Positions 1-12,406 of a stretch of 12,406 bases of DNA are shown in pieces. The notes beneath the pieces were generated by a model, which ran no database searches, was not told the origin of the DNA, and saw only the letters and a list, made by a program, of their open reading frames with translations. The translations under genes and the position numbers were made by a program. The stretch lies in UHGV virus genome UHGV-0130052. One strand, 5' to 3'. Source of the stretch: a virus. Each line of letters begins with the position of its first letter. Within the stretch, counting starts at the first letter, position 1.

Positions 1-54
1 AGCAGCGCATTCGTAATGCGAAGGTCGTAGGTTCGACTCCTATTATCGGCACCA
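1..54 (+). tRNA. thrW: tRNA-Thr (anticodon CGU), 3' portion only; the 5' end lies upstream of the window
   Basis: Anticodon loop CATTCGTAATGCG (CGT at 13-15), T-arm GGTTCGACTCC, acceptor 3' strand TATCGGC, discriminator A and encoded CCA ending at 54. Matches the enterobacterial thrW sequence as I recall it; the symbol assumes an enterobacterial-type host. Confidence 0.85.
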
Positions 55-55
55 T
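36..55. repeat. attL core: tRNA 3'-end copy of the 20-bp direct repeat ACTCCTATTATCGGCACCAT
   Basis: Identical 20-mer recurs at 12321-12340 in the same orientation; overlaps the tRNA 3' end as expected for tRNA-targeted site-specific integration. Confidence 0.8.
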
Positions 56-660
56 CAAGAAAATCAATAACTTAGCTTAACTTCTCTAAGAAATTGTATC
101 TTCTGTTATCACTTACAAACGCCTATACGTTGTTATGGGCTTTTGGTAGTTTAACACGTATGGGCGAGTAGTTCCCAGGCTCAACCTCGTAACAAGTTCC
201 TTTGAAGCTGGAAGACGTGCCACCGTCTCTAAACCTTCTACCAAAACTCTTAGCAAGATGTTCCACACCTGGCGCGGTGTCCAATGATGCTACACGTCGT
301 GAGACGTTGCAGAGGATAAACAGGCTAAATGATGGGAAGAGTTTTAAGTGCAATAGTGGATTAAAGCCCACCTCTTCAAAACCTAACTTGATCGGGAAAG
401 AATCAAGCTCTAGCACGGTTTCGTCCACCGGAGTACAACGGGTGCCTGATAAGAGAAGAACTGCTAAGACTTCATAGCTTTTGTGAAAAAGCCCTTTTTA
501 GTGGATACGCCTACGGCGCTTATTTTTTGGTATAACCATCAAAGGCGCTTTATGGCTCCTATTGTCTTGAAAATGTATCTTTACTTGTATTGTGTTTTAT
601 GCGTAGTCTCCCTGTGTAGTATGTAACTTGTTAATTTTCATATGAATACAGAGGCACACG

Positions 661-1356: not shown

Positions 1357-1375
1357 AGGAGGCATTACGCCTCCT
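1357..1375 (-). terminator. Hairpin over the stop codon of the recombinase gene (possible terminator)
   Basis: AGGAGGC-ATTAC-GCCTCCT 7-bp GC-rich stem; downstream on the minus strand is UUGAUAUUUGA, only moderately U-rich. Confidence 0.25.
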
Positions 1376-1904
1376 CTTCTTCCTTCTTGATACGTTGCAC
1401 CGTTGAAGGAGCAACATTAAAGCTCTCGGCGGTTTTACGCACTGACAGGCCATCAGAAAGGGCTTTCTTTATACCTTCTCGATCCACTGCTTTTCCATTA
1501 CCACGTTTTGTAGGATTGACGGCTTGCGCTTCTCGTTTACGTTCTAACATCAGTTCACGTTCACACGTTGCAACTGCCGACAACATCGTAAGCATCATCT
1601 TTCCCATCGCGCTTGTAATGTCTGCAATGATTCCTTCTTTGTGAAATCGAACAATTACACCTCGATTATTAAGTTGTTCAACTAAAGCAAGGATGTCTAA
1701 GGTGTTACGTCCTAAACGGTCGAGAGAGTGCACGTGTAAGGTGTCGCCTTCTCTCAGATAGGCTAAACACGCTTGTAAGCCTGGGCGGTTAGTGTCTTTA
1801 CCAGACAGCTTATCTTCAAAGACTTTATCGAGAGTTACTCCTGCAAGCTGGCGATCAGTGTTCTGATCTACAGTGCTCACACGCTTATAACCGATATTGC
1901 TCAT
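1365..1904 (-). CDS. Serine recombinase, resolvase/invertase family (179 aa) with C-terminal HTH
   Basis: N-terminal GYKRVSTVDQNTDRQ catalytic-serine motif; SLDRLGRN and SAMGKMMLTMLSAVATCERELMLER segments resemble Tn3 TnpR/Hin as I recall them; C-terminal SVRKTAESFNVAPSTVQRI HTH; AAGAGGA Shine-Dalgarno before the start. Confidence 0.9.
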   Translation of the reverse strand: MSNIGYKRVSTVDQNTDRQLAGVTLDKVFEDKLSGKDTNRPGLQACLAYLREGDTLHVHSLDRLGRNTLDILALVEQLNNRGVIVRFHKEGIIADITSAMGKMMLTMLSAVATCERELMLERKREAQAVNPTKRGNGKAVDREGIKKALSDGLSVRKTAESFNVAPSTVQRIKKEEEEA

Positions 1905-1943
1905 AAAATCCTCTTAATGTGTCGATTTGGCACTACTTCAATG

Positions 1944-1979
1944 CAAATGAGTATACCGTATTCATTTGGTCTGTTTCAA
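1944..1979 (-). promoter_or_regulatory. Putative recombinase promoter (-35 TTGAAA, 18-bp spacer, -10 TATACT on minus strand) overlapping an imperfect dyad CAAATGAGTATAC-C-GTATTCATTTG (res site I candidate)
   Basis: Hexamers read directly on the minus strand at 1974-1979 and 1950-1955; the dyad spans 1944-1968 and overlaps the -10. Classic resolvase autoregulatory layout. Confidence 0.45.
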
Positions 1980-2026
1980 GCCTTATGGGTACGGAATATT
2001 ACACGATTTAGCTGTATTCATTTGGT
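1958..2026. repeat. Direct repeat GTATTCATTTGGT x2 (1958-1970, 2014-2026), candidate accessory resolvase subsites
   Basis: Exact 13-mer repeated 56 bp apart immediately upstream of the recombinase gene. Confidence 0.5.
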
Positions 2027-2047
2027 ATGCCTAATGGATACACAGGG

Positions 2048-2477
2048 GGATAGATTAAATGATGTTCTGTTTATACAGGTTTATTTGTTAGATCAACAAT
2101 TTGGCATTTCTAAACAGATGTTTGAACGTTGCCAAATGTCTTGACAACACAAGAAAAGGGCTTGCTATGCCACGCATTACACGAAATAAGGCTGTAAAAA
2201 CAAAATAAATTTTAAAATTTGCACAAACGAGAAAACTCGTTCAGAAACAAGCAGAACAATTTTTAGCCAACAATTTATGATGGTGCTTTGTAAGCCGCAT
2301 TACACAAGGCTTTGCGAAAGTGATGTAAAAGTGAAGAAAGTGAGAATTGCACTTTTAGCTACTTTTTCATTGAATTTTTAGTATGGAATTACACAGGGAA
2401 TAGAGAGCATTATTCTATGATTTACACAGGGAATATAGGGGGATTATGGCACACACATAGAAAGACATTACACAGAG
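2048..2477. repeat. Iteron-like family: TTACACAGGGAATA (2389-2402 and 2422-2435, exact), ATACACAGGGGGATAG (2048-2063), CGCATTACAC (2173-2182, 2296-2305), CATTACACAG (2466-2475)
   Basis: Exact and near-exact direct repeats seen in sequence; two perfect 14-mers are 33 bp apart. A degenerate copy ATTACATAAGGGAAT sits at ~3432-3446. Confidence 0.6.
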
Positions 2478-2520
2478 TGCTATGTGACAAATGGATGTAA
2501 CGGTAGGTCATAGTGAGCTA

Positions 2521-2609
2521 CCCCCACAGAATTCTGTTAATCTTAACTTTTAAAGAGATTTGTACCCTAACAAAATTCTGTTACCCCACCCCCACAGAAT
2601 TCTGTTACC
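2521..2609. repeat. Three ~20-bp iterons each containing a 12-bp palindrome: CCCCCACAGAATTCTGTTA (2521-2540, 2589-2608) and variant CCCTAACAAAATTCTGTTACCCC (2565-2587)
   Basis: ACAGAATTCTGT is a perfect palindrome; copies are direct repeats flanked by C-runs and are immediately followed by an AT-rich tract. Confidence 0.7.
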
Positions 2610-2670
2610 TATTAGATCATTTATTAAATTACTTATTAAATTATAATATTATATATTTATTTATATGATC
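2610..2670. other. AT-rich tract (almost pure A/T), candidate DNA-unwinding element of an origin
   Basis: TATTAGATCATTTATTAAATTACTTATTAAATTATAATATTATATATTTATTTATATGATC directly downstream of the palindromic iterons. Confidence 0.4.
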
Positions 2671-2840
2671 TTTTGCCTTCCGGCGTTAGCTTCACTCTCT
2701 GGCAAGCAGCCTTACTCCGCTACCTTTCGGGCTACGTTGGCTGGCCCGTTCCGCTCACACCGAAAGCAAAGCGTTACTTTCTTCGTGTAACTATCGTTGG
2801 CGGTAACGCCCACGAAGAAATACTATTGCGCTGTGCGCAG
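2671..2840. other. GC-rich, highly self-complementary island in an otherwise AT-rich non-coding region (candidate structured RNA or cis-acting DNA site; strand unknown)
   Basis: Perfect 10-bp stem TTTCTTCGTG (2778-2787) / CACGAAGAAA (2811-2820) enclosing a GGCG-GTAA-CGCC hairpin (2799-2810); CTTTCGG (2724-2730) / CCGAAAG (2760-2766); TGCGC-TGT-GCGCA hairpin (~2827-2839). The overlapping ORF 2673-2951 looks non-coding. Confidence 0.3.
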
Positions 2841-3476
2841 AAGAGTAATCACCTAACCAATCATACTGATTGCTTATGTGTTAACTCTATCTCTCTACTC
2901 TTAATTACCCTCCTACATTTAATAACTCTGTTATTCTCTGTAGTTGTGTAATTGTTTTCGGTGGAAAAGCCAGAGGCGACACCGAAAGAGAATTCTGATC
3001 TTATTAATCTTATCTATCTTAGTTAATCTTCTTACTTATCTTACTTACTTTATCTACTTTATTATTAATAATAGCTTTATAAGCTCTCTGCGTAGCTCTC
3101 TGACGCAAGAAACAGCATTCAGGAAGGGAATCACCTTAGAAAAGTGTTCTTTGCGTCATAATGTGTTTTATGAAGGATTCAGAGGTGTTTCATAACAGGA
3201 ATGTATAGAGGATACTTTAATTAATTAAAAATAAGGGGTCTAAATGCTTCTCTAACAGCATTAAGCAGGGTAGGGAATGGAAACGCATTGCCTACACATA
3301 TAAGCTCACTACAGGGCTTTACAGGGCGTTTTATAAAGTGACTCTCTATCTTATATCTACCATTACCTTTTCATATACCTAACAAATACAAAATAAGCCC
3401 CTTAAATAAGCCTCTGGCGAGCTAAACAGCCATTACATAAGGGAATGTATTGCTTTTATCAAAATCTCGTTATAAC

Positions 3477-3496
3477 GCGTTTTAGAGCGTTTTAGA
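3477..3496. repeat. Tandem direct repeat GCGTTTTAGA x2, candidate operator ~85 bp upstream of the 3581 promoter
   Basis: Exact 10-bp tandem duplication seen in sequence. Confidence 0.5.
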
Positions 3497-3580
3497 CAAT
3501 AATGAAGAATGGCACTACACAGAAGAGCACGAGTTGCTCGTAAGTGCATGAAAAAGATCGATTTTTTTCGGAAGGGGTAT

Positions 3581-3609
3581 TGACAAACGTCTCTTTCTGT
3601 GCAATAATA
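3581..3609 (+). promoter_or_regulatory. Sigma70-like promoter: -35 TTGACA (3581-3586), 17-bp spacer, -10 AATAAT (3604-3609), for the 3733-5986 operon
   Basis: Consensus -35 with optimal spacer; near-consensus -10; ~120 nt upstream of a gene with a strong AGGAGG ribosome-binding site. Confidence 0.5.
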
Positions 3610-3732
3610 GGAATTAGAGGGGACAGGAATAGATTCTTATCCTCTAAATAATTAAACCAATGCACCGCACTTTGAAGCCCAAGGCTTGCAAGGTGTTTTT
3701 TCTTTTAACCAAATAGAATAGGAGGTTAATTA

Positions 3733-3921: not shown

Positions 3922-3943
3922 TAGACAAGAGAAGGAGAAAACT

Positions 3944-4111
3944 ATGAGCGAAACTAAGAAACCAATTCCGCGCACTTACCTACACGTTGACCCTGAAATC
4001 TTCAAGGTTTTATTTGCTGAAGCCAAGAAAAGGCAAATTATGGTCAGTGATTTGATGTTAGAAATCATTACTGAAGCAGCAGAGAACATCAAACAAAAAA
4101 AGGGTAAGTGA
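3944..4111 (+). CDS. Putative ribbon-helix-helix (CopG/Arc-like) DNA-binding protein (55 aa)
   Basis: AGGAG 6 nt upstream of ATG 3944 (internal start of track ORF 3878-4111); N-terminal basic strand RTYLHV followed by two predicted helices, typical RHH layout. Judged by eye. Confidence 0.5.
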   Translation: MSETKKPIPRTYLHVDPEIFKVLFAEAKKRQIMVSDLMLEIITEAAENIKQKKGK

Positions 4112-4162
4112 TCCTCATTCACTTTAGTAGCGCATTAAGCGTGATTTATAAGGAGATTTTTA

Positions 4163-4816
4163 ATGATTAATGAAGAACAATTTGTAAAAGTTCCTATGTG
4201 GATTCTAAAAATAAGCCAAGTAAACGGGCATAAATTTACAGATAGTGCTAAAAACCTTTACTGCTATCTGAAAGGGTTTGATCGTGCATTTCCCTCTTAC
4301 GCTAAGATAGGCGATGTTTTTGGCATAACACCAAGAGCAGCAGAGGAAAGGGTTAAGAAATTGCTCGAAATGGGATTAATTATAAAAGATGCACGACCAG
4401 GAAGTTCTAATGTCTATCAAGTGGTAGATATTCCACAAGAAGAAGCTAGACAAGAAGCCAAGACACAACAAGAAGCTACTGTTAAAGCTGTTCCTGATCA
4501 GCTTCCGCCTACGGAAGATAATAAACAGCCTTCTTTTGATGTTCTTGATGATTGGGATACGCCTTTACCGTGGGAGACGGAAGAAACACCTGTTTCATCA
4601 AGTGAAAAGGTAGCTAATGATAATGAGGAGGATGTGTTAGAAAATTTTGCCTCTCTTATTATCAAGCAGAAGAATACCAGAACAGCAGGGGCATCATTTA
4701 TAGAATTTGCAAATTCACTAGCTTATAGACACGGGCTAAAACGACCAAATGGTATTGAGGCATATTTTGCTAAGAAACATCCCAAAGTATACGAAGACTT
4801 TGATATTCCATTTTAA
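4163..4816 (+). CDS. Putative replication initiator/replisome-organiser-like protein: N-terminal winged-HTH, acidic C-terminal region (217 aa)
   Basis: AAGGAG Shine-Dalgarno; N-terminal segment (YAKIGDVFGITPRAAEERVKKLLEMGLI) has the look of phage/plasmid initiator wHTH domains; acidic DDWDTPLPWETEETP stretch. Function is inferred, not demonstrated. Confidence 0.45.
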   Translation: MINEEQFVKVPMWILKISQVNGHKFTDSAKNLYCYLKGFDRAFPSYAKIGDVFGITPRAAEERVKKLLEMGLIIKDARPGSSNVYQVVDIPQEEARQEAKTQQEATVKAVPDQLPPTEDNKQPSFDVLDDWDTPLPWETEETPVSSSEKVANDNEEDVLENFASLIIKQKNTRTAGASFIEFANSLAYRHGLKRPNGIEAYFAKKHPKVYEDFDIPF

Positions 4817-5235: not shown

Positions 5236-5646
5236 ATGGCAAAAAGAAAAAACAATGTTGTTAAGAAAATCGGGGATTCAGCTTCTCTTCTAAGTAAACC
5301 TAAATCTATTCTAAGACGCAAAGACTTTAAAGAGCTAGTTACGCTCACCAAGCATAATAGCGCCCCTGGCGAATGGAAAACAGAGATCATAGAACATTCT
5401 CCCTCTGTGCCTTGTGGAGATGAATTTAACGCATTACAAGAAATCTTATCTTCAACACCTGGCGTATTCTGGAAACCTAGAAAAAGAAAAGAGTATATTG
5501 TTGATAGCTCTGATTTACGCAAATACCAGATTTTAGGATTTGAAGACTATAACCACTACGTTGGTTATCTCGCCACCAATGGCCTAAATAATTTAGTTCC
5601 TGAATTCCAAATTTTAGATAATGCTGATCACTATGGAGACTTTTAA
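5236..5646 (+). CDS. Hypothetical protein with basic N-terminus (136 aa)
   Basis: Same strand and operon; AAGGA upstream; the antisense ORF 5184-5522 is rejected in its favour. Confidence 0.5.
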   Translation: MAKRKNNVVKKIGDSASLLSKPKSILRRKDFKELVTLTKHNSAPGEWKTEIIEHSPSVPCGDEFNALQEILSSTPGVFWKPRKRKEYIVDSSDLRKYQILGFEDYNHYVGYLATNGLNNLVPEFQILDNADHYGDF

Positions 5647-5647
5647 T

Positions 5648-5986
5648 ATGAACAAAAACACGTATGATACAATTTACTCACTAATTAATTATTATGAGGA
5701 TGATTACCTCCTGCCTTTAAACCGCGCTGAACTTGATGCATATAAAGAAAACACCCCAGCGGCACTAAATGAGGCGTTTAAACACTGGGATTTAGCTGTG
5801 AATGCCTTTGAGCACCTCTGTAAGCGTGTAGAGATGCTCTGTAAGCGTGAAAACGCATATCTGACAGCCGATCAGATATGGGAGCTATCAAACTGGATAG
5901 AAGATATTGAATCTGATGTTCGCTATGTAGGAGACGGCCTTGTTGAACTAGCTCAACGCTTAGGCGCTACTATCACAGAAGAATAA
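5648..5986 (+). CDS. Hypothetical protein (112 aa from ATG 5648; track ORF begins at 5621)
   Basis: ATG 5648 lies 1 nt after the upstream stop with GGAGAC 7 nt ahead; the 5621 start would overlap the previous gene by 26 nt. Confidence 0.5.
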   Translation: MNKNTYDTIYSLINYYEDDYLLPLNRAELDAYKENTPAALNEAFKHWDLAVNAFEHLCKRVEMLCKRENAYLTADQIWELSNWIEDIESDVRYVGDGLVELAQRLGATITEE

Positions 5987-6015: not shown

Positions 6016-6044
6016 TTGACATTTCATCTATTGTATGTTAATAT
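6016..6044 (+). promoter_or_regulatory. Sigma70-like promoter: -35 TTGACA (6016-6021), 17-bp spacer, -10 TAATAT (6039-6044), upstream of the capsid-containing operon
   Basis: Consensus -35, optimal spacer, near-consensus -10; a second -10-like hexamer (AATTAT/TATATA) follows immediately. Confidence 0.55.
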
Positions 6045-6181
6045 AATTATATAGGGTGATTATTTTTCCTTTATTGGTTCGATATTAAAAATTCTTCTTG
6101 TCGTTAAAGGGGAGTAAAATCTCCGCTCCCCGCTTCTCCTCCTTAAGTAAATACTGTGTCATTATTACCTCTTTTTTCCTT

Positions 6182-6214
6182 TGTTATGCATACATCTTGG
6201 AGTGTGCATAACAT
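6182..6214. promoter_or_regulatory. Inverted repeat TGTTATGCA-N14-TGCATAACA in the operon leader (candidate protein-binding site or RNA hairpin)
   Basis: 9-bp perfect arms seen in sequence. Confidence 0.4.
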
Positions 6215-6227
6215 AGGGTAATTACAA

Positions 6228-6257
6228 AGGCGGCTTTAAATGCTGCCTTTTATTTTG
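6228..6257 (+). terminator. Intrinsic terminator inside the leader, ~60 nt upstream of the first gene of the capsid operon
   Basis: AGGCGGC-TTTAAAT-GCTGCCT stem (7 bp, one G-U) followed by TTTATTTTG. Confidence 0.5.
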
Positions 6258-6264
6258 CCCGTTA

Positions 6265-6318: not shown

Positions 6319-6531
6319 ATGTTGTTTTTAAACGATAAAGAGCAAATCATCAAGTATAAAGATGAAATGCTGAAAATTAATCCACAAATTACCGAAATGG
6401 TAGCTAAATACGCTGGGTGTTCTGTAGAGGAAGTAGAAAGATGTGTTGAAAAATATTTTTCTCCTTCTTCTCCGTCTACACCTTCCCTTAATGAACTAAT
6501 CAAATTAAAAGCTAAGGAGATTACTAAATGA
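6319..6531 (+). CDS. Small hypothetical protein (70 aa)
   Basis: Stop overlaps the next start (ATGA), suggesting translational coupling; weak ribosome-binding site. Confidence 0.4.
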   Translation: MLFLNDKEQIIKYKDEMLKINPQITEMVAKYAGCSVEEVERCVEKYFSPSSPSTPSLNELIKLKAKEITK

Positions 6532-6890
6532 TTATTGATTTAGACACTCTTTTTCCAAGTCGAAAGACGTTTACAGATCTGGTGGCTTATTGTACTGATC
6601 CGTTTGCCTCTGTAGAAAACAAGGTTTTTGCTTCTCTTCCTGCTGATGTTGAATGCGGAGACTTGATCACCAGCACTGGCGCTAAATATGAATCAGGAGA
6701 TGATATCTATGTTGTTATGAGTGAATTTGTAACGGCTGGGGAAAACAAGCCTGTAGATGTGCTACGTAGCAATGCTGGCCTTGTGTGCATTAAAGCTGAT
6801 GCGCTGAATGCTGTAAGTGAAGCAGCAAAAACAGCATTAATTAAAAAAGGCTTCCAGCTTGAAGGCTTTAATACGGTTTTCACTTCTTAA
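6528..6890 (+). CDS. Hypothetical head-module protein (120 aa), positionally analogous to a decoration or scaffold protein
   Basis: AAGGAG Shine-Dalgarno; ATGA overlap with upstream gene; sits directly upstream of the capsid-like gene. I see no convincing similarity to lambda gpD, so the role is positional inference only. Confidence 0.5.
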   Translation: MIIDLDTLFPSRKTFTDLVAYCTDPFASVENKVFASLPADVECGDLITSTGAKYESGDDIYVVMSEFVTAGENKPVDVLRSNAGLVCIKADALNAVSEAAKTALIKKGFQLEGFNTVFTS

Positions 6891-6908: not shown

Positions 6909-7937
6909 ATGATTCTAGGTAATGATTACGTTGATTTGATCCCTCTGTTCCAGACACACAGCACGCGTAACTTCCTGCTCTCTACCCTTGATTTTACGGA
7001 TTCTGTAGGGGTTACATCTCATAAAGTAGCTGTTTCACAGCTTGTCGAAAGCAACGAATCTCTGTTCAACAAAGAAACCTCTCGTTTCTCTTCTGAACAC
7101 AACGTTACTAAGCGAGAACAAGGTAAAGAATGGCTGATTGAAATCCCTTACTTCCTACGTGAAGATGTGATCCGTCCTTCTGATGTTCAAGGCAAGCGTA
7201 AACCTGGCACTGATTTCCAGGAAACACTCACTGATATTTATGCTGAGTATGTTGCTAAACATCACGTAGCGTATCAGCGTACAAAAGAGAGCGTGTTGGC
7301 GGCTTCTTTGTTCTCTGGCAAAACTTACACGCCTAAAACTGATGATGTTCTTATCGAGTGGGGCAAGCTGTTTAACGTATCAGCTATGAAAGCCACTGTG
7401 AACGCTTCCAGCACTGACACCACGAAGATTTTTAAAGAATTTGATCAGATTGCTACTGACATTATCGAAAAAGCACAAAGCCAGGCGGCTGCTGTAGAGC
7501 GTATTGTTGTTTTCTGTAAGCCGGAAGCCTTCTCTGCAATTCGATTCTCTGCGGGTATGGCAAACGCATTCCAGTATGTAAGCCCACTGGAAGAAGGGAA
7601 CGTTGTGTATCAGCGTCGTGACCTGCTACCAGGAGTGACAGCGTTCACTATTCCAGGAACTAACATTGATGTTGTTAAACTGGTAGATCCGCTACACCTG
7701 GCACATATGACCGCAGACGCTGTAGCTGTGCCTAAATTCTCTAAGGGTAGCGGAATTTATACCAATATCTTCGGGGCTGCTTCCAGCACCTTTGAACTGA
7801 TTAATGCCGCTCCTGCTGAGGTGTATAGCTATAGCTATGAATCTTCTCGTGGTGATGCTGTTAACGTTGTTACAGAGAATAGCCAGATGGTTGTAAACCA
7901 CGGTGTAGGCTTCTCCGTTCAAATCACTGTTAAATAA
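6909..7937 (+). CDS. Putative major capsid protein, lambda gpE-like family (342 aa)
   Basis: Length close to lambda gpE (341 aa). Local similarities to gpE as I recall it: RIVVFCKPEAFSAIRFS vs IIVFDPKGWALFRSF, LFSGKTYTPKTDD vs VLKGKYTMTGE, C-terminal FSVQI vs VSVQLA, N-terminal DLIPLFQ vs FDPLFLR. Followed by a strong terminator. Not verified by search. Confidence 0.55.
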   Translation: MILGNDYVDLIPLFQTHSTRNFLLSTLDFTDSVGVTSHKVAVSQLVESNESLFNKETSRFSSEHNVTKREQGKEWLIEIPYFLREDVIRPSDVQGKRKPGTDFQETLTDIYAEYVAKHHVAYQRTKESVLAASLFSGKTYTPKTDDVLIEWGKLFNVSAMKATVNASSTDTTKIFKEFDQIATDIIEKAQSQAAAVERIVVFCKPEAFSAIRFSAGMANAFQYVSPLEEGNVVYQRRDLLPGVTAFTIPGTNIDVVKLVDPLHLAHMTADAVAVPKFSKGSGIYTNIFGAASSTFELINAAPAEVYSYSYESSRGDAVNVVTENSQMVVNHGVGFSVQITVK

Positions 7938-7955
7938 TATTTTAACGTGTAATAG

Positions 7956-7990
7956 AGGCGTGGCGTGAATAACACGCTTCGCCTTTTTTT
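7956..7990 (+). terminator. Strong intrinsic terminator after the capsid-like gene
   Basis: AGGCG/CGCCT outer and GCGTG/CACGC inner stem (loop AATAA) followed by seven Ts, then ATTTATTTTT. Confidence 0.75.
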
Positions 7991-8023
7991 ATTTATTTTT
8001 AAATTTTGAGAGGTGATTAAAAT

Positions 8024-8224
8024 ATGGAAGTGATTCTGAAATCAAAAAACGGTGTACACGTACATTTAGATGCTAATGATTCTAGAGGCTTGTTAAATCT
8101 GAAATATCTATGTTCTCTCTTAGATGTTCCATATGAAGGAGTAAAAGCCCGTATGTTCAGACTAAACGAGAGTATTGATCAGGCTCTACACCATTTCTTA
8201 AGCAAAGAAGGTGGTAAAAAATGA
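8024..8224 (+). CDS. Small hypothetical protein (66 aa)
   Basis: GAGGTGA upstream of ATG; same operon and strand. Confidence 0.45.
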   Translation: MEVILKSKNGVHVHLDANDSRGLLNLKYLCSLLDVPYEGVKARMFRLNESIDQALHHFLSKEGGKK

Positions 8225-8242: not shown

Positions 8243-10084
8243 ATGTTAGAAATTAACACTTCTAAAATTAAGAACACAGTAACATTTAGTGTAGATAAAG
8301 ACAGCTTGAAAAAAGCGAAAGACTCTATTACAGGCTTAAAGGAATTCGCAGAAAATATCAAGCCAGCTAAATTGAGATTTGATAATGTCACTAAAGGCTA
8401 TAAGAAAGCACAAAGTGAAGTAGACAAGATTACTCAACAGAAAGCTAAAACAGAAAAACAGAATCAAAGAGCACAAGCTGCCGCAGCAAGAGCACAGGCA
8501 AGGCAACAGGCACAAATAGCAGCACGTAAAGAGAAAGCAGAATTAAAACTTCTCGATGTGTCAAGCTCTATCAGTGCAATGCACCGCCTCTCTGTAGCGG
8601 AACAATACAAAGCTATTGCACAGGCTAGAGAGATAGCAAAACAATATGAGCAAGGGGCTATCTCGCTTGCACGTATGAATAGCCAGATGAAACGCCTACA
8701 ACAACAACAACGTAAGATTAATGGCAACAGAAAAACTCAATTAGCCCCCGTTAAGGGAGGATCAGGGAATTCCGCCACTATGGGCGCTCTGTTATTTGGA
8801 GGCGCTACGGCTGCTGCTGGCGTGATGGCTGTTAGCAAAGCGGCGGAGTTTGTTAGTAGCAGTTTCGCTAACGCAGAGACCCAAGGGGAGCTAATCCAAC
8901 GTGCCAAGCTGGGCGGTGTAGACGTTAACCAGATGTATAATATTACAGAATGGGCCTATAGACACGGGATCGATAGCCTCCAGGGAGATCAAGGGGCTAG
9001 GAAATACCTGGATCAGATGAAAGATGTTAGGGAACGTGCCGCAAAATCCTACAGTGAAGCTGAATTGGTGAAAGACAAGAAAACCGGAAAATCTGAATGG
9101 AAAGGCGGTGATAACGCTATTAATGAACTTCTAAACATCGGTGTTATTAACAAAAGCGACCTTAAAAAATTTGCTGATAATCCAGCCGGATTAATTTCTA
9201 AGGCTGTTAATGGAATGATGAAAAAAGGGTTTTCAGACTCCCAAATTGGACAACGTTTAGAAGACCTGGGCGATGATTTGATGCTTACATCAAAATATTG
9301 GCAACGTTCCGTTAAAGATGTACAAGAAAGTATTAATCAGCAAAAAGCCTCTGGAAAATGGCTAACAGAAACACAGCAAGAATCTATTGTTAAATTCAGA
9401 GAACTAAACAGACAGCTTTCACAGCTTTCTGATGCAAGACAAGTAGCATTTGTAGACGGCTTTATGAAATCTCTCGATCCAAAAGTAACGGAAGAGTTTA
9501 TGAAAAACCTTTCTAATCTCACTCCGTATTTTACGAAGCTGGGTGAAGCCGCAGGAAGTCTTTTTGACGCCATTATGAAGATTGTAAACTGGTTTAATCG
9601 TAATGATGATAAGACAGATGCTATTCAGAAAAATATGGGTGATGCACCGCCACTATCTAACGATGGAATGAAACAGAATCTTTCTAACCTCGTTCCTGAT
9701 AAATATAAAGGCGCTGGCACTGCAACAACTACACCTGATAATAGTCATTCCCTCTTTAACACAATTAAGGGATTGCTTTTCGATGATAAGTCTTCTGTGT
9801 CAGATGTAAAAATGTCAGTCAGCGAAGCACCGATAACCAATCTCAAACAGGGTGCTTTAAATAATCTTGCAATGACAACTCCGGCTTATAATTTATCTCC
9901 TGTGTTTAATCTGAATCCTACATTTGAAGTGGTAACAGAGGTTCCGCTTACTATTAATTCTGACACATCCAGATTAAGCGATTATGTGGATTTTACAGCG
10001 AGAGCAAGTCGGGATAGCTTCTTGAAATCATTAACATTAACCAGCTTGTCAGGACAATCCAACGGCGGGGAATTCCCGCCATAA
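8243..10084 (+). CDS. Large hypothetical protein (613 aa): N-terminal coiled-coil-like region rich in Q/A/K/R, Gly/Ala-rich hydrophobic segment, large C-terminal domain; tape-measure-like or scaffold-like
   Basis: AAGGGGA 6 nt upstream of ATG; residues ~60-170 are helical and low complexity (QRAQAAAARAQARQQAQIAARKEKAELKLL); hydrophobic TMGALLFGGATAAAGVMAV; no catalytic motif recognised. Confidence 0.6.
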   Translation: MLEINTSKIKNTVTFSVDKDSLKKAKDSITGLKEFAENIKPAKLRFDNVTKGYKKAQSEVDKITQQKAKTEKQNQRAQAAAARAQARQQAQIAARKEKAELKLLDVSSSISAMHRLSVAEQYKAIAQAREIAKQYEQGAISLARMNSQMKRLQQQQRKINGNRKTQLAPVKGGSGNSATMGALLFGGATAAAGVMAVSKAAEFVSSSFANAETQGELIQRAKLGGVDVNQMYNITEWAYRHGIDSLQGDQGARKYLDQMKDVRERAAKSYSEAELVKDKKTGKSEWKGGDNAINELLNIGVINKSDLKKFADNPAGLISKAVNGMMKKGFSDSQIGQRLEDLGDDLMLTSKYWQRSVKDVQESINQQKASGKWLTETQQESIVKFRELNRQLSQLSDARQVAFVDGFMKSLDPKVTEEFMKNLSNLTPYFTKLGEAAGSLFDAIMKIVNWFNRNDDKTDAIQKNMGDAPPLSNDGMKQNLSNLVPDKYKGAGTATTTPDNSHSLFNTIKGLLFDDKSSVSDVKMSVSEAPITNLKQGALNNLAMTTPAYNLSPVFNLNPTFEVVTEVPLTINSDTSRLSDYVDFTARASRDSFLKSLTLTSLSGQSNGGEFPP

Positions 10085-10105: not shown

Positions 10106-10819
10106 ATGGCGACCGCCGGGATTTTAACCATACGATCAGCAAACTCCCCAGAACAACACGTTCAGGCTGTTTACAAAGCAGAACAAGATATAAACTCTAC
10201 AAAAAACACAAATAACTCTGCCTCTACTGTGAAAGGAGAGAATGGATTTGCTATTGTTACCAGTGGCTTGGCATCTTCTGGTAATGACGTTTATGAAAAT
10301 TATATGGCACTGGCCTTTGACAGTGTTGACGATGTGAACGTGAGACGTTCGGCAGATGTCACAAGCTACCCCGTAGAGAATGGTGCTACTGTGTCTGATC
10401 ACGTTCAAATTAAAAACAATAAGTTTTCTCTTAAAGGGCGTATCTCTGAAACACCGATTAAAAGCGATCCTGGCTTGTTAAAGAGTGCAGGGGTGAACGG
10501 GAACAGAAGATCATTAGCTATCGACTACCTGAATCAGATTATGGACAGTAGACAGCCTTTTCTTCTTGTTACAGAAAATAAAACTTTTGAGAACGTTGTT
10601 TTAACAGGCATCGAATACACAGAAGAGGCAAGCGAATCCCTGGTATTTGATCTTAGCTTTGAACAAATCAGATTAGTTTCTTATGGCACTGTAAACACTG
10701 TAGCTATCAAAACACAGCCATCTAAGAACATAGGGGCTAATATGAAAAAACGTGTTAACACTGAAAAAGCAAGTAGTGAAGGTGAAGACACTATTACTCC
10801 TGCCTTTAAACAGGAATAG
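10106..10819 (+). CDS. Hypothetical protein (237 aa), composition suggests beta-rich; possible virion or accessory protein
   Basis: AAGGA upstream of ATG; last gene of the operon, convergent with the integrase; no motif recognised. Confidence 0.55.
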   Translation: MATAGILTIRSANSPEQHVQAVYKAEQDINSTKNTNNSASTVKGENGFAIVTSGLASSGNDVYENYMALAFDSVDDVNVRRSADVTSYPVENGATVSDHVQIKNNKFSLKGRISETPIKSDPGLLKSAGVNGNRRSLAIDYLNQIMDSRQPFLLVTENKTFENVVLTGIEYTEEASESLVFDLSFEQIRLVSYGTVNTVAIKTQPSKNIGANMKKRVNTEKASSEGEDTITPAFKQE

Positions 10820-10860
10820 CCGTAAATGCCTCTAAAACGCTCTGTAACGATGTAATTATA

Positions 10861-10893
10861 AAAGAGGCTACCAATCTATGTTGAAGCCTCTTT
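10861..10893. terminator. Candidate bidirectional terminator between the convergent 10106-10819 gene and the integrase
   Basis: Perfect 9-bp stem AAAGAGGCT / AGCCTCTTT with A-run on one side and T-run on the other; the 15-nt loop is long, which lowers confidence. Confidence 0.45.
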
Positions 10894-10900
10894 ATTGCGT

Positions 10901-12265
10901 CTATGGTGTTGTTTTACGCCTTAAATTTGATTTTTTATTGATTGATAAGCCTTTCTCTATTTCAGGGTAGCGTAGAAGCTCAATATATTTTTTAAGCTCT
11001 ACTGGAGAAGCTGCATTCTTGCTATATGTGCGGAATGTCTCTGTATTGCCGCGTGTATGGCCCAGGAGAAGGGCGATCCTGTCTTCTGGAATTTGATTTC
11101 GATCAAGAAGCTGTGCTACTCCGTGTCTCAGAGAATGAAACACCTTCCTTTCTGTTCCCTTTTCCCCTAAAGCCTTTCGTTTAGCTCTTGTAAATCTCTG
11201 CGTGTGCCACGTAGAGCGTTTACCATCTACACGCTCTGTAATGCTGGCGTGATAGAACAAAAAGCCATTATGAGGCTTTTCACGCAGCGACAACACCAAC
11301 GGAGTGATAAGGCTGTGTACAGGCACAACACGTGCCGCAGCTTTCGTTTTTCCCTGTGTGATTTCAAAACACAGCACACCTTCGATCTCTTTCACATCGT
11401 CTATTGTGAGACTTGCTATCTCATTGATCCGCATACCTGTATATAAACCGATAAGACACAAAGCCATCATTTCTTTGTTTTCTGCTGAATTACCGGAAAA
11501 TACTTGCAACACCTGCAATAGCTCTTTGTTAGAAAATGCCTCGTAGCTCTCTCTACTTTGTGCCACATCAAGCCTATGCCCTCGCCAGGGGGAGAGCGCC
11601 CTTTCTGGCGCATCGTGGTAACGTGATGAAGCTAACTCCCATAGCTGGGCCATTGGGCTGATATAATTTGCAATTGATTGTTGTGAAAGGGTTTTTTGCA
11701 TGTGTTCAATCCAGCCTGTAACAGTGGTGCGGCTTACATCTTGCAATGCAATATCAGGCTTTTTACGGTAGGAGAGAAACATCTCTACCGCTTTTCTTGC
11801 CTTAGCTAAAGTGGCTGGCTTCTTCTTCGTGCTGTTAATTGTCAGGTAGATTTCAAGAATTTTAAGCAATGACGGACACGAAGACGCTGTATCTTGCATT
11901 CTGGTAGCTGTTTTGGCGTATTTAGCCTTACTGCGTAACAGCTCCAGCGTGTTCTCTATTGTGCTGTTTACAGGGGCGACACTCTCCCGTAGACAATGGT
12001 ATTCATCTGCAATCTGATCACGCTTTCTACGTGCAACACGAAGATTACTTGTGTGCAGACTCCTGACAAACGTCCTTTTTCCTTCAAAAAAGGGCTGCAT
12101 ATACACAGGCAACGTGATCCTCAAATAGTAGTTACCGTAAGAATCACAGATTATGTATTGATTGGGCTTGTATCTCATAAACTCCCCGGCTAAAGTGTCG
12201 GAGCGTTTGTAATGTGAAAATTGATTGTGACGCATAGAAAATGATGATTTTTCTATAAGATTCAA
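10901..12265 (-). CDS. int: Tyrosine site-specific integrase (454 aa)
   Basis: C-terminal catalytic-domain motifs HSLRHGVAQLL and LLGHTRGNTETFRTY (His/Arg/Tyr signature); start lies ~55 bp from the right-hand att repeat and the gene reads away from it. The ribosome-binding site is weak, so the exact start is uncertain. Confidence 0.9.
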   Translation of the reverse strand: MNLIEKSSFSMRHNQFSHYKRSDTLAGEFMRYKPNQYIICDSYGNYYLRITLPVYMQPFFEGKRTFVRSLHTSNLRVARRKRDQIADEYHCLRESVAPVNSTIENTLELLRSKAKYAKTATRMQDTASSCPSLLKILEIYLTINSTKKKPATLAKARKAVEMFLSYRKKPDIALQDVSRTTVTGWIEHMQKTLSQQSIANYISPMAQLWELASSRYHDAPERALSPWRGHRLDVAQSRESYEAFSNKELLQVLQVFSGNSAENKEMMALCLIGLYTGMRINEIASLTIDDVKEIEGVLCFEITQGKTKAAARVVPVHSLITPLVLSLREKPHNGFLFYHASITERVDGKRSTWHTQRFTRAKRKALGEKGTERKVFHSLRHGVAQLLDRNQIPEDRIALLLGHTRGNTETFRTYSKNAASPVELKKYIELLRYPEIEKGLSINKKSNLRRKTTP

Positions 12266-12320
12266 TCAATTAGTAATGGTCGTAGGTGATGGCATTAACA
12301 CGAGATTAATCGAGTGTTTT

Positions 12321-12340
12321 ACTCCTATTATCGGCACCAT
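12321..12340. repeat. attR core: second copy of the 20-bp direct repeat (duplicated tRNA 3' end)
   Basis: ACTCCTATTATCGGCACCAT identical to 36-55; not preceded by the rest of a tRNA, so it is a partial tRNA copy marking the element boundary. Confidence 0.8.
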
Positions 12341-12406
12341 TAAAATCAAAGAGTTACCCCATATTTAAATACACCACGTTTCCTCCTGTGCCGTATTTGT
12401 GCCATT

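Follow-up and report, generated by a model that had tools for sequence, protein, structure and literature searches.

Which role a phage capsid gene can play in an island that encodes neither a portal nor a terminase is the question raised by the UHGV virus genome UHGV-0130052, analyzed here as one stretch of 12,406 nucleotides (nt; in the following called the window). A sequence-only reading of this DNA had noted a 342-amino acid (aa) capsid protein homologue and had proposed a capsid-encoding satellite as explanation. The whole window was found to represent one 12.3-kb island in the tRNA-Thr gene thrW of E. coli. Our analysis makes it moderately probable that this island is a complete integrative satellite of phi92-like myoviruses (Justusliebigvirus, Phapecoctavirus) with the mechanism proposed below, and the more general description as a satellite-type hitcher of Stephanstirmvirinae is held with greater confidence than the full mechanism. 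A satellite remains the best explanation for this element, which has an integrase and att repeats and lacks a complete virion or packaging set. The features on which this reading relies are the following.

1-58, plus strand: 3′ part of tRNA-Thr (thrW) with attL; 20-bp core ACTCCTATTATCGGCACCAT at 36-55
3944-4111, plus strand: 55-aa gene with 100% aa identity to muut_153, an early gene of Justusliebigvirus muut
4163-4816, plus strand: HTH_36 DNA-binding protein, 217 aa, putative replication initiator (PHROGs, Pfam)
6528-6890, plus strand: 120-aa protein, probable divergent head-decoration (cement) protein (position, size, transitive homology)
6909-7937, plus strand: major capsid protein homologue, 342 aa (Pfam, PHROGs, PDB profile, fold, dN/dS)
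7954-7992, plus strand: intrinsic terminator 3′ of the capsid gene; 13-bp interrupted stem (7954-7986) and seven T
8243-10084, plus strand: tape-measure protein homologue, 613 aa (phrog_16051, E 7.7e-52)
10106-10819, plus strand: tail-tube-initiator (Dit-like) homologue, 237 aa (Pfam Dit_like, E 2.5e-29)
10901-12265, minus strand: tyrosine integrase, longest open reading frame (ORF) 454 aa (Phage_integrase E 1.5e-17, DUF6538, Phage_int_SAM_5; phrog_1)
12316-12343, plus strand: attR, copy of the tRNA 3′ end (direct repeat)

The capsid gene and its closest relatives

The placement of the 342-aa ORF by the sequence-only reading was exact: it begins with an ATG and is preceded by a ribosome-binding site (AAGGA) 8 nt 5′ of this codon. 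Its proposed membership in the gpE/HK97 capsid family was borne out as well. In the profile search suggested as a check, PF03864 (Phage_cap_E) matched the protein with an E-value of 9.4e-14 and 51.6 bits at a curated gathering cut-off of 22.9 (Pfam), and the alignment of residues 22-341 with profile positions 17-329 of 329 covers nearly the full profile (313 of 329). The comparison with PHROGs yielded phrog_29 ‘major head protein’ (E 1.2e-15), and a profile of the 22-member capsid family reached the solved phi92 protein gp124 (21uy_N) over its full length in a PDB sequence search (E 2.4e-18).

The AlphaFold2 model of the capsid protein was modest, with a predicted local distance difference test score (pLDDT) of 56 and a predicted template modeling score (pTM) of 0.60. 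The top 12 PDB matches of this model in Foldseek were all HK97-fold capsid proteins (E 1.5e-8 to 1.2e-5), the matches belonging to the lytic myoviruses ICP1, phiTE, Bas63 and Sf14 with ICP1 (8g1r) on top; encapsulins were matched weakly (E ~0.1). Since the full-length profile match to phi92 gp124 does not depend on the model, it supports the assignment of the HK97 fold independently. The comparison of a predicted structure with the fold of lambda gpE, also suggested beforehand, was successful in that HK97 folds were found, but gpE itself (7sj5) was among the matches only at E 3e-3, behind the myovirus capsids. The capsid family profile did not reach lambda gpE at E <= 1 in the PDB sequence search, and the local motifs that had been thought common to the island protein and lambda gpE are consequently unsupported. 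On both grounds, the missing profile match and the fold rank, lambda was rejected as nearest relative. The gene is a genuine and intact HK97-fold capsid-protein gene, of the gpE family at the level of Pfam family and fold, whose closest solved relative by profile similarity is phi92 gp124 and not lambda gpE.

Aligned end to end with the capsid protein of phage alia, the candidate helper, the island protein is 21% identical (pairwise E 3e-7). All capsid regions are aligned in comparison with the alia protein and the phi92 gp124 profile, and the protein is full length without truncation. The terminator that follows the gene is indeed the strongest in the window by folding energy (-20.0 kcal/mol, z -5.0; the next best terminator-like sites reach -15.7 and -12.6 kcal/mol), and the capsid gene of alia likewise has a terminator directly 3′. 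A phage particle contains hundreds of capsid protein copies, compared with three copies of the tape measure and six of the initiator. A strong terminator 3′ of the capsid gene fits this stoichiometry, because far more capsid than tail-core protein is needed.

The structural operon and its counterparts in phi92-like phages

The capsid gene had been described as standing alone in a small island. This view could not be maintained, as the gene is part of a structural operon together with probable decoration, tape-measure and tube-initiator genes. All ORFs of at least 50 aa that were taken as genes were scanned against Pfam and/or PHROGs. Among these island ORFs no portal, terminase, protease, scaffold, neck, sheath, tube, baseplate or fibre gene was found, and tblastn against the genome of phage muut added no portal, terminase, protease or scaffold; the island being devoid of portal and terminase, as first noticed from the sequence, is thereby confirmed. 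The recognisable virion parts encoded are four, namely capsid, probable cement, tape measure and tube initiator. They pair one to one with proteins of phi92, in which gp123 is the cement protein, gp124 the capsid protein, gp134 the tape-measure protein and gp135 the tube initiator of a virion with a T=13 head (PMC13450770). The relative order, cement and capsid followed by tape measure and initiator, is also the same, whereas about ten phage genes located between the two pairs are absent from the island.

Divergence from the phage proteins is uneven. The island tube initiator is 62% identical at the aa level to alia gp015, the equivalent of phi92 gp135. The tape measure, at 613 aa, is 46 aa shorter than alia gp014 (659 aa), with 55% identity in the first 66 aa and 28% in the C-terminal 440 aa, and capsid identity drops to the 21% given above, while the cement protein is undetectable in pairwise comparison. 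In alia, gp014 and gp015 are adjacent and have the same order as the tape-measure and tube-initiator genes of the island.

The 120-aa protein is a probable, divergent cement protein; we consider this assignment, made by sequence comparison, likely. In position and size its gene corresponds to the phage cement gene, the immediate 5′ neighbour of the capsid gene in both alia and phi92. When 1.8 billion representatives were searched exhaustively with a profile, no more than 24 relatives came up. Two distant ones, P0147 and P0148, matched phrog_2680 ‘head decoration’ (E 1.7e-5 and 7e-4), the family to which alia gp004, a cement protein, belongs (E 3e-39). The widened profile of the 120-aa protein gave a weak, collinear and near-full-length alignment of low probability with alia gp004 in hhalign (E 0.008), and equally collinear and near-full-length, weak ones with decoration proteins of solved structure from Bas63 (E 0.19) and Sf14 (E 0.98), two phages whose capsid proteins are also among the best matches of the island capsid protein. 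The direct PHROGs scan of the 120-aa protein was negative, as were BLASTP, narrow-profile hhalign and a PDB profile search for a relation to the phage cement protein. The phi92 cement protein gp123 has a beta-tulip fold like lambda gpD (PMC13450770). An AlphaFold2 model of the 120-aa protein was too poor (pLDDT 51) for a fold search to have any meaning.

The link to one group of phages comes from several observations. Homologues of the tape measure and the Dit-like protein were found in the phage collection essentially only in Stephanstirmvirinae-type records, here meaning phi92-like Justusliebigvirus, Phapecoctavirus and relatives, virulent myoviruses with genomes of 145-150 kb; for the tape measure, 134 phage records matched. 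A tblastn search with every island protein against the 146-kb genome of muut showed that this phage shares only five of them: the 55-aa protein, the helix-turn-helix (HTH) protein, the capsid protein, the tape measure and the tube initiator. In a concatenated tblastn of all small island ORFs and the 120-aa ORF against 50,697 phage genomes, no match was obtained. At the DNA level, positions 3932-4170 are 99.6% identical to muut, 4124-4516 are 89-95% identical to Mt1B1_P17 and BI-EHEC, 8244-8330 are 86% identical to muut, and 10137-10265 are about 90% identical to many Justusliebigvirus-type phages; phage inny is also among those sharing patches of 86-99.6% identity with the island. Such near-identical patches imply recent recombination between island and phages, and the two must therefore come together inside common host cells. 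The N-terminal domain of the HTH_36 protein is common to muut_154 (40% aa identity), whereas the C-terminal domain of muut_154 differs and is T5orf172/MUG113-like. The sharing of muut_153 and muut_154 suggests a common DNA-binding specificity or regulation of island and phage. No shared late-promoter motif emerged, the phage late region having ordinary sigma-70-like promoters and terminators.

Three types of island tape measures are mutually only 24-35% identical, and yet the search with each of them gave 134 phage records, all three sets having one genus composition of Stephanstirmvirinae type. The whole island family is therefore associated with this phage subfamily. The Klebsiella-type tape measure is 40-42% identical to those of Phapecoctavirus. 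Sequence comparison suggests that the tail module has been repeatedly exchanged with helpers.

Of the complete E. coli genomes surveyed (5426), 229 contain 80% or more of the window, and the pair of 120-aa and capsid genes is in 396 (7%), always chromosomal and in up to three copies each; strain FHI_NMBU_11 (NZ_CP045712) is one island-bearing E. coli. Capsid homologues (37-96% identical) were found only in chromosomal islands of Enterobacterales, with E. coli, E. albertii, Klebsiella, Enterobacter, Citrobacter, Cronobacter, Kluyvera, Buttiauxella, Scandinavium, Leclercia, Serratia and Sodalis as hosts. One and the same reduced gene order recurs, at differing integration sites, in islands of Escherichia, Klebsiella, Serratia, Buttiauxella, Kluyvera, Citrobacter and Scandinavium. 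Among members with available context it runs from a replication-type module (HTH_36 or DEAD/ResIII helicase-like) through a 136-aa gene, a gene of ~70 aa, one of ~120 aa and the capsid gene to a gene of ~63 aa, a tape measure of 610-638 aa, sometimes a tube initiator, and the integrase. The capsid gene is linked to a tape-measure gene in every family member. Relatives from seven genera contained no portal, prohead protease, head-tail connector or terminase, their large extra ORFs being DEAD/ResIII helicase-like. Across lineages, capsid genes are 55-76% identical and tape measures 24-35% (7199-9040 in L012, 11332-13182 in L003, 8243-10084 in the window), and the tube-initiator gene is restricted to some lineages, namely the E. 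coli thrW type and Buttiauxella.

Ratios of non-synonymous to synonymous substitution rates (dN/dS) in unsaturated comparisons were 0.09-0.16 (capsid gene), 0.11-0.17 (tape measure), 0.08-0.19 (tube initiator) and 0.03-0.28 (120-aa gene). By this measure, the structural genes evolve under purifying selection; taken with the conserved gene order and the number of E. coli genomes that carry the gene pair, this shows that the island family is not a decaying remnant.

A proposed helper-dependent satellite and the rival explanations

The boundaries of the island are those of an integrated element. A direct repeat of 28 positions (31-58 and 12316-12343, 25 identical) contains the 20-bp core ACTCCTATTATCGGCACCAT, and the Rfam tRNA match at 1-51 has its 5′ end cut off by the start of the window. 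In an annotated copy (L001) the tRNA-Thr gene lies downstream of proBA, and in annotated E. coli genomes the element sits between proBA and the pao genes. The integrase gene adjoins attR and is annotated as 425-444 aa in other copies. The sequence of the attP junction was predicted as CGAGATTAATCGAGTG-TTTTACTCCTATTATCGGCACCAT-CAAGAAAATCAATAACTTAGC. The tRNA segment GGTCGTAGGT (24-33 in the window) has a second short copy at 12279-12288, about 30 nt left of attR, which may have been left behind by a previous integration or belong to the attP arm. Among strains, thrW is a hotspot for tandem arrays. In some of them a P4-like element lies directly right of the island (L123, 15595-21029; L129, 7758-13192) and carries an integrase, two reverse-transcriptase defence genes, Ogr/Delta and Psu; in another, a defence cluster of methyltransferase, GmrSD and HEPN genes lies to the left (L127, 1-2704). 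Inside the island itself Psu, Sid, Delta/Ogr and alpha primase had no Pfam match, Ogr_Delta and Psu being confined to the separate neighbouring element.

The mechanism we propose starts with infection by a phi92-like helper, upon which the island would excise, replicate and express its structural operon. The island capsid protein and its own cement protein would assemble on the portal and scaffold of the helper into a shell of island size, too small for the 148-kb helper genome. By scaling of the head volume from the T=13 head of phi92, a T=3 shell would hold about 16 kb and a T=4 shell about 25 kb; the island has 12.3 kb. Helper terminase would fill the small shell, and portal, scaffold and protease would also come from the helper, for which gp001 (portal), gp003 (scaffold candidate) and gp002 (protease-like) of alia are candidates. 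The island tape measure, together with the initiator where present, would replace that of the helper in an otherwise helper-made contractile tail. These chimeric tails are predicted to be about one tube ring shorter than those of the helper, because the tape measure is 46 aa shorter and the same reasoning applies as for the tails of PLE satellites. Diversion of helper parts into satellite particles would depress helper yield. That the island protein would build or resize capsids is suggested by gene content and published precedents, and excision, packaging and capsid size are likewise inferred.

A number of points weigh against this mechanism. With only 21% identity to the capsid protein of the candidate helper, the use of helper portal, scaffold and protease by the island protein is in question, and in single-sequence tblastn some Pseudomonas myovirus capsids score slightly above that of the candidate helper. 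The fold model of the island capsid protein has modest confidence (pLDDT 56), and the decoration assignment of the 120-aa protein is soft, the homology behind it being weak and transitive. Neither a gene resembling a small terminase or serving to redirect packaging nor a recognisable pac or cos site was identified in the island. An exact-match search with the predicted attP junction gave 0 matches in metagenome and viral contigs, and none of 80 metagenome loci was a circular or terminally redundant contig, both searches having low power; matches in IMG/VR were all in larger, integrated contexts.

Part of the same evidence could be explained if the island capsid protein merely co-assembled with that of the helper, for instance in the pentons, and altered shell curvature and size only. 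There is a direct precedent in Ccm of the cos-type staphylococcal pathogenicity island SaPIbov5, a capsid homologue 24% identical to that of the phi12 helper, which is located in the pentons of small T=4 capsids (PMC8569155); the divergence found here is comparable, and the island has neither scaffold nor protease of its own. However, a probable cement protein is encoded directly 5′ of the capsid gene and is kept under purifying selection. A penton-only role fits poorly with this, since a capsid protein confined to the pentons would not require such a partner. The lineage of the island capsid is moreover old and distinct from that of the phages. We regard a role of this kind as unlikely. Rather improbable in our view is a defence island that is not packaged at all and whose capsid, tape-measure and initiator homologues serve as dominant-negative decoys poisoning phi92-like assembly. 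The targets of all recognisable virion homologues would indeed lie in the assembly of a single phage subfamily, disruption of tail assembly is an established means of defence (PMC11364771; Rta in PMC12987554), and no packaged form appeared in the metagenome and viral contig searches. Nevertheless, PADLOC identified no defence system in the island except for one weak coiled-coil-type match of the tape measure to JetC, the capsid protein is full length with every capsid region aligned, and the integrase, the att repeats, the replication-type module and the several sites occupied across genera, for which a pure defence role does not account, point to horizontal spread. As known satellites join interference with their own transfer, this alternative is also not exclusive of the satellite proposed here.

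Far less weight is given to two further explanations. A cryptic remnant of a formerly complete prophage or integrated myovirus, most of whose genes were lost, would account for phage structural genes next to an integrase, for the scattered phage genes in the RefSeq annotation and for the proviral calls that IMG/VR pipelines make for such regions. It is hardly credible in view of the phages concerned, which are virulent, have genomes of ~146-150 kb and show no integrase in their records. The minimal gene set and its order in at least seven genera, with dN/dS of 0.03-0.28 for every structural gene tested, speak against it as well, and no pseudogenised portal or terminase fragment matching the phage genome was seen. 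We attach equally little belief to a reduced phage-inducible chromosomal island of the capsid-forming kind (cf-PICI) or an encapsulin-like nanocompartment gene unrelated to phi92-like phages. The HK97 fold is common to encapsulins and cf-PICI capsids, and encapsulins were weakly matched by the model, but portal, protease, head-tail connectors, small terminase and AlpA, the hallmarks of cf-PICIs, are absent, the best relatives by sequence and fold are capsids of lytic myoviruses and not encapsulins, and every member links the capsid gene to a tape-measure gene.

A satellite of phi92-like myoviruses remains the preferred reading. The wider claim, to which we give slightly less than even credence, is that of an undescribed and widespread Enterobacterales satellite family living on virulent phi92-like myoviruses, with doubly chimeric virions in which both the shell (capsid and cement) and the tail core (tape measure with or without initiator) would be encoded by the satellite, and portal, scaffold, protease, terminase, neck, sheath, tube, baseplate and fibres stolen. 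No description of the island family was found in open-access text and bioRxiv. If the claim is true, this would be the first known satellite with its own shell that lacks its own portal or packaging genes, and the first satellite of the therapeutically used phi92-like group in E. coli and Klebsiella. Lytic phages of the phi92-like and phAPEC8-like kinds have a broad host range, infect E. coli and Klebsiella and are candidates for phage therapy. Should the island, which about 7% of complete E. coli genomes carry, hijack or sabotage helper assembly, phage resistance would have a determinant that has gone unrecognised, and virulent phages would drive a route of gene transfer; relatives in Klebsiella, Enterobacter and Citrobacter widen the reach of this possible effect. 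The system would also offer a tractable E. coli model for how a 21%-identical capsid protein uses a foreign portal and scaffold, and for why satellites replace the tape measure.

Remaining features and comparison with known satellites

In addition to the genes discussed so far, the island contains the following features.

1365-1904, minus strand: serine recombinase/DNA-invertase-like gene, 179 aa (Pfam Resolvase E 7.5e-34; phrog_125 E 1.3e-54)
1999-2607, plus strand: iteron-like repeat arrays in a 1.8-kb ORF-free stretch (1905-3732; repeat search)
3580-3608, plus strand: sigma-70-like promoter of the early/replication operon (TTGACA-17-AATAAT, 11 of 12 matches, TG extension)
5236-5986, plus strand: two family-conserved genes, 136 aa (5236-5646) and ~112-121 aa (5621-5986), of conserved position
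6016-6262, plus strand: promoter-like site (6016-6044), structured leader and intrinsic terminator (6226-6250) just 5′ of the structural operon
6319-6531, plus strand: 70-aa gene, first of the structural operon; gene of the same size at this position in all examined family members
8024-8224, plus strand: 66-aa gene directly 5′ of the tape-measure gene; a 62-67-aa gene is found there in all family members

The promoter at 6016-6044 is strong and sigma-70-like (TTGACA-17-TAATAT with TG). The leader of ~200 nt that follows is highly structured (minimum free energy -60.4 kcal/mol, z -5.6) and ends in the terminator at 6226-6250 (-15.7 kcal/mol). The same layout of promoter, leader and terminator occurs in Klebsiella and in a second E. 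coli island type, its sequence being unconserved. This suggests antitermination control of the structural operon, and the element could be an antitermination switch or a small RNA; the Rfam scan of the window returned the tRNA and no other non-coding RNA. The 70-aa gene has a dN/dS of 0.00-0.13 among close E. coli copies, and for the 66-aa gene no family match was obtained in Pfam or PHROGs. Homologues of the two genes at 5236-5986 have the same position in islands of E. coli, Klebsiella, Buttiauxella, Kluyvera, Citrobacter and Scandinavium, with no match in Pfam, PHROGs or PADLOC.

The serine recombinase (Hin/Gin-type) is the sole island protein named by NCBIfam and a candidate cargo or accessory gene; inverted repeats that would flank and so delimit an invertible segment were not found around 1365-1904. 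In the adjoining stretch 1905-3732, for which the RefSeq copies annotate no coding sequence, repeats of the TTACAC(A/G) type occur in seven same-strand copies (1999-2480) and ACCCCCACAGAATTCTGTTA in three (2520-2607). The TTACACAG repeat array was not clustered in phage muut. We infer that this stretch is a candidate replication origin or packaging region. The HTH_36 protein encoded further downstream matches replication-initiator PHROGs at E 2.6e-10 and weaker, its match to Pfam HTH_36 being weak and under the curated cut-off. Repeats of the GCGTTTTA type lie upstream of the early promoter (3319-3333 and 3470-3494), an inverted copy lies between the ends of the tube-initiator and integrase genes (10831-10849), and a 42-nt imperfect inverted repeat connects 3453-3494 with 10823-10864. 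The GCGTTTTA-type repeats may be operator or recombination-directionality sites.

Several known satellites share part of the features of this island. As in SaPIbov5, a homologue of the helper capsid protein with HK97 fold is encoded at low identity (24% there and 21% here), and both elements are devoid of portal and terminase; in SaPIbov5, Ccm serves to make small capsids of satellite size (PMC8569155). The two elements differ in host, island backbone and type of helper, which is a temperate siphovirus for SaPIbov5 and would be a large virulent myovirus here, and only the E. coli island carries a probable cement and two tail genes; the likeness drawn here is one of features.

The PLE satellites of the Vibrio cholerae phage ICP1 bring a tape measure, a chaperone and a baseplate hub of their own, which are 20, 20 and 41% identical to those of ICP1, and their chimeric tails are 10 nm shorter (PMC12987554). 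PLEs use the capsid protein of the helper, reshaped by the external scaffold TcaP (PMC10945586). PLEs resemble the island as integrative satellites of a virulent myovirus whose capsid protein ranks first among the fold matches of the island protein, and in having a tape measure and a tube- or baseplate-proximal protein that are both homologous to those of the helper. In contrast to the island, which has its own capsid gene and no recognisable TcaP-like gene, PLEs are without a capsid gene. This comparison, too, refers to features and not to gene sequences, and, host and helper being different, no membership in the PLE family is claimed for the island.

The cf-PICIs encode the whole head and packaging set, including portal, protease, connectors and small terminase, and steal tails only (bioRxiv 10.1101/2022.09.08.507074); some of them carry putative tape-measure genes (PMC12987554, Extended Data Fig. 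10). They and the island have in common to be satellites of Enterobacterales with their own HK97-fold capsid protein. However, neither Pfam and PHROGs nor tblastn against muut revealed a portal, protease, connector or small terminase in the island, and a membership in the cf-PICIs was rejected, every defining head and packaging gene being absent. P4-like elements and classical Gram-negative PICIs are similar in size (~10-12 kb), integration at a tRNA site, tyrosine integrase and, presumably, dependence on a helper, and differ in that the island is without Psu, Sid, Delta, alpha primase and AlpA. Neither AlpA nor any primase family matched in Pfam or PHROGs, the replication-type gene being that of the HTH_36 protein. 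To our knowledge, no capsid-protein or tape-measure homologue occurs in classical PICIs and P4.

All these comparisons make the island look like a new family inside the known category of phage satellites, one that joins features which are separate in SaPIbov5 and the PLEs. If this is true, a Ccm-type capsid homologue and a PLE-type tail core would be combined in one system.

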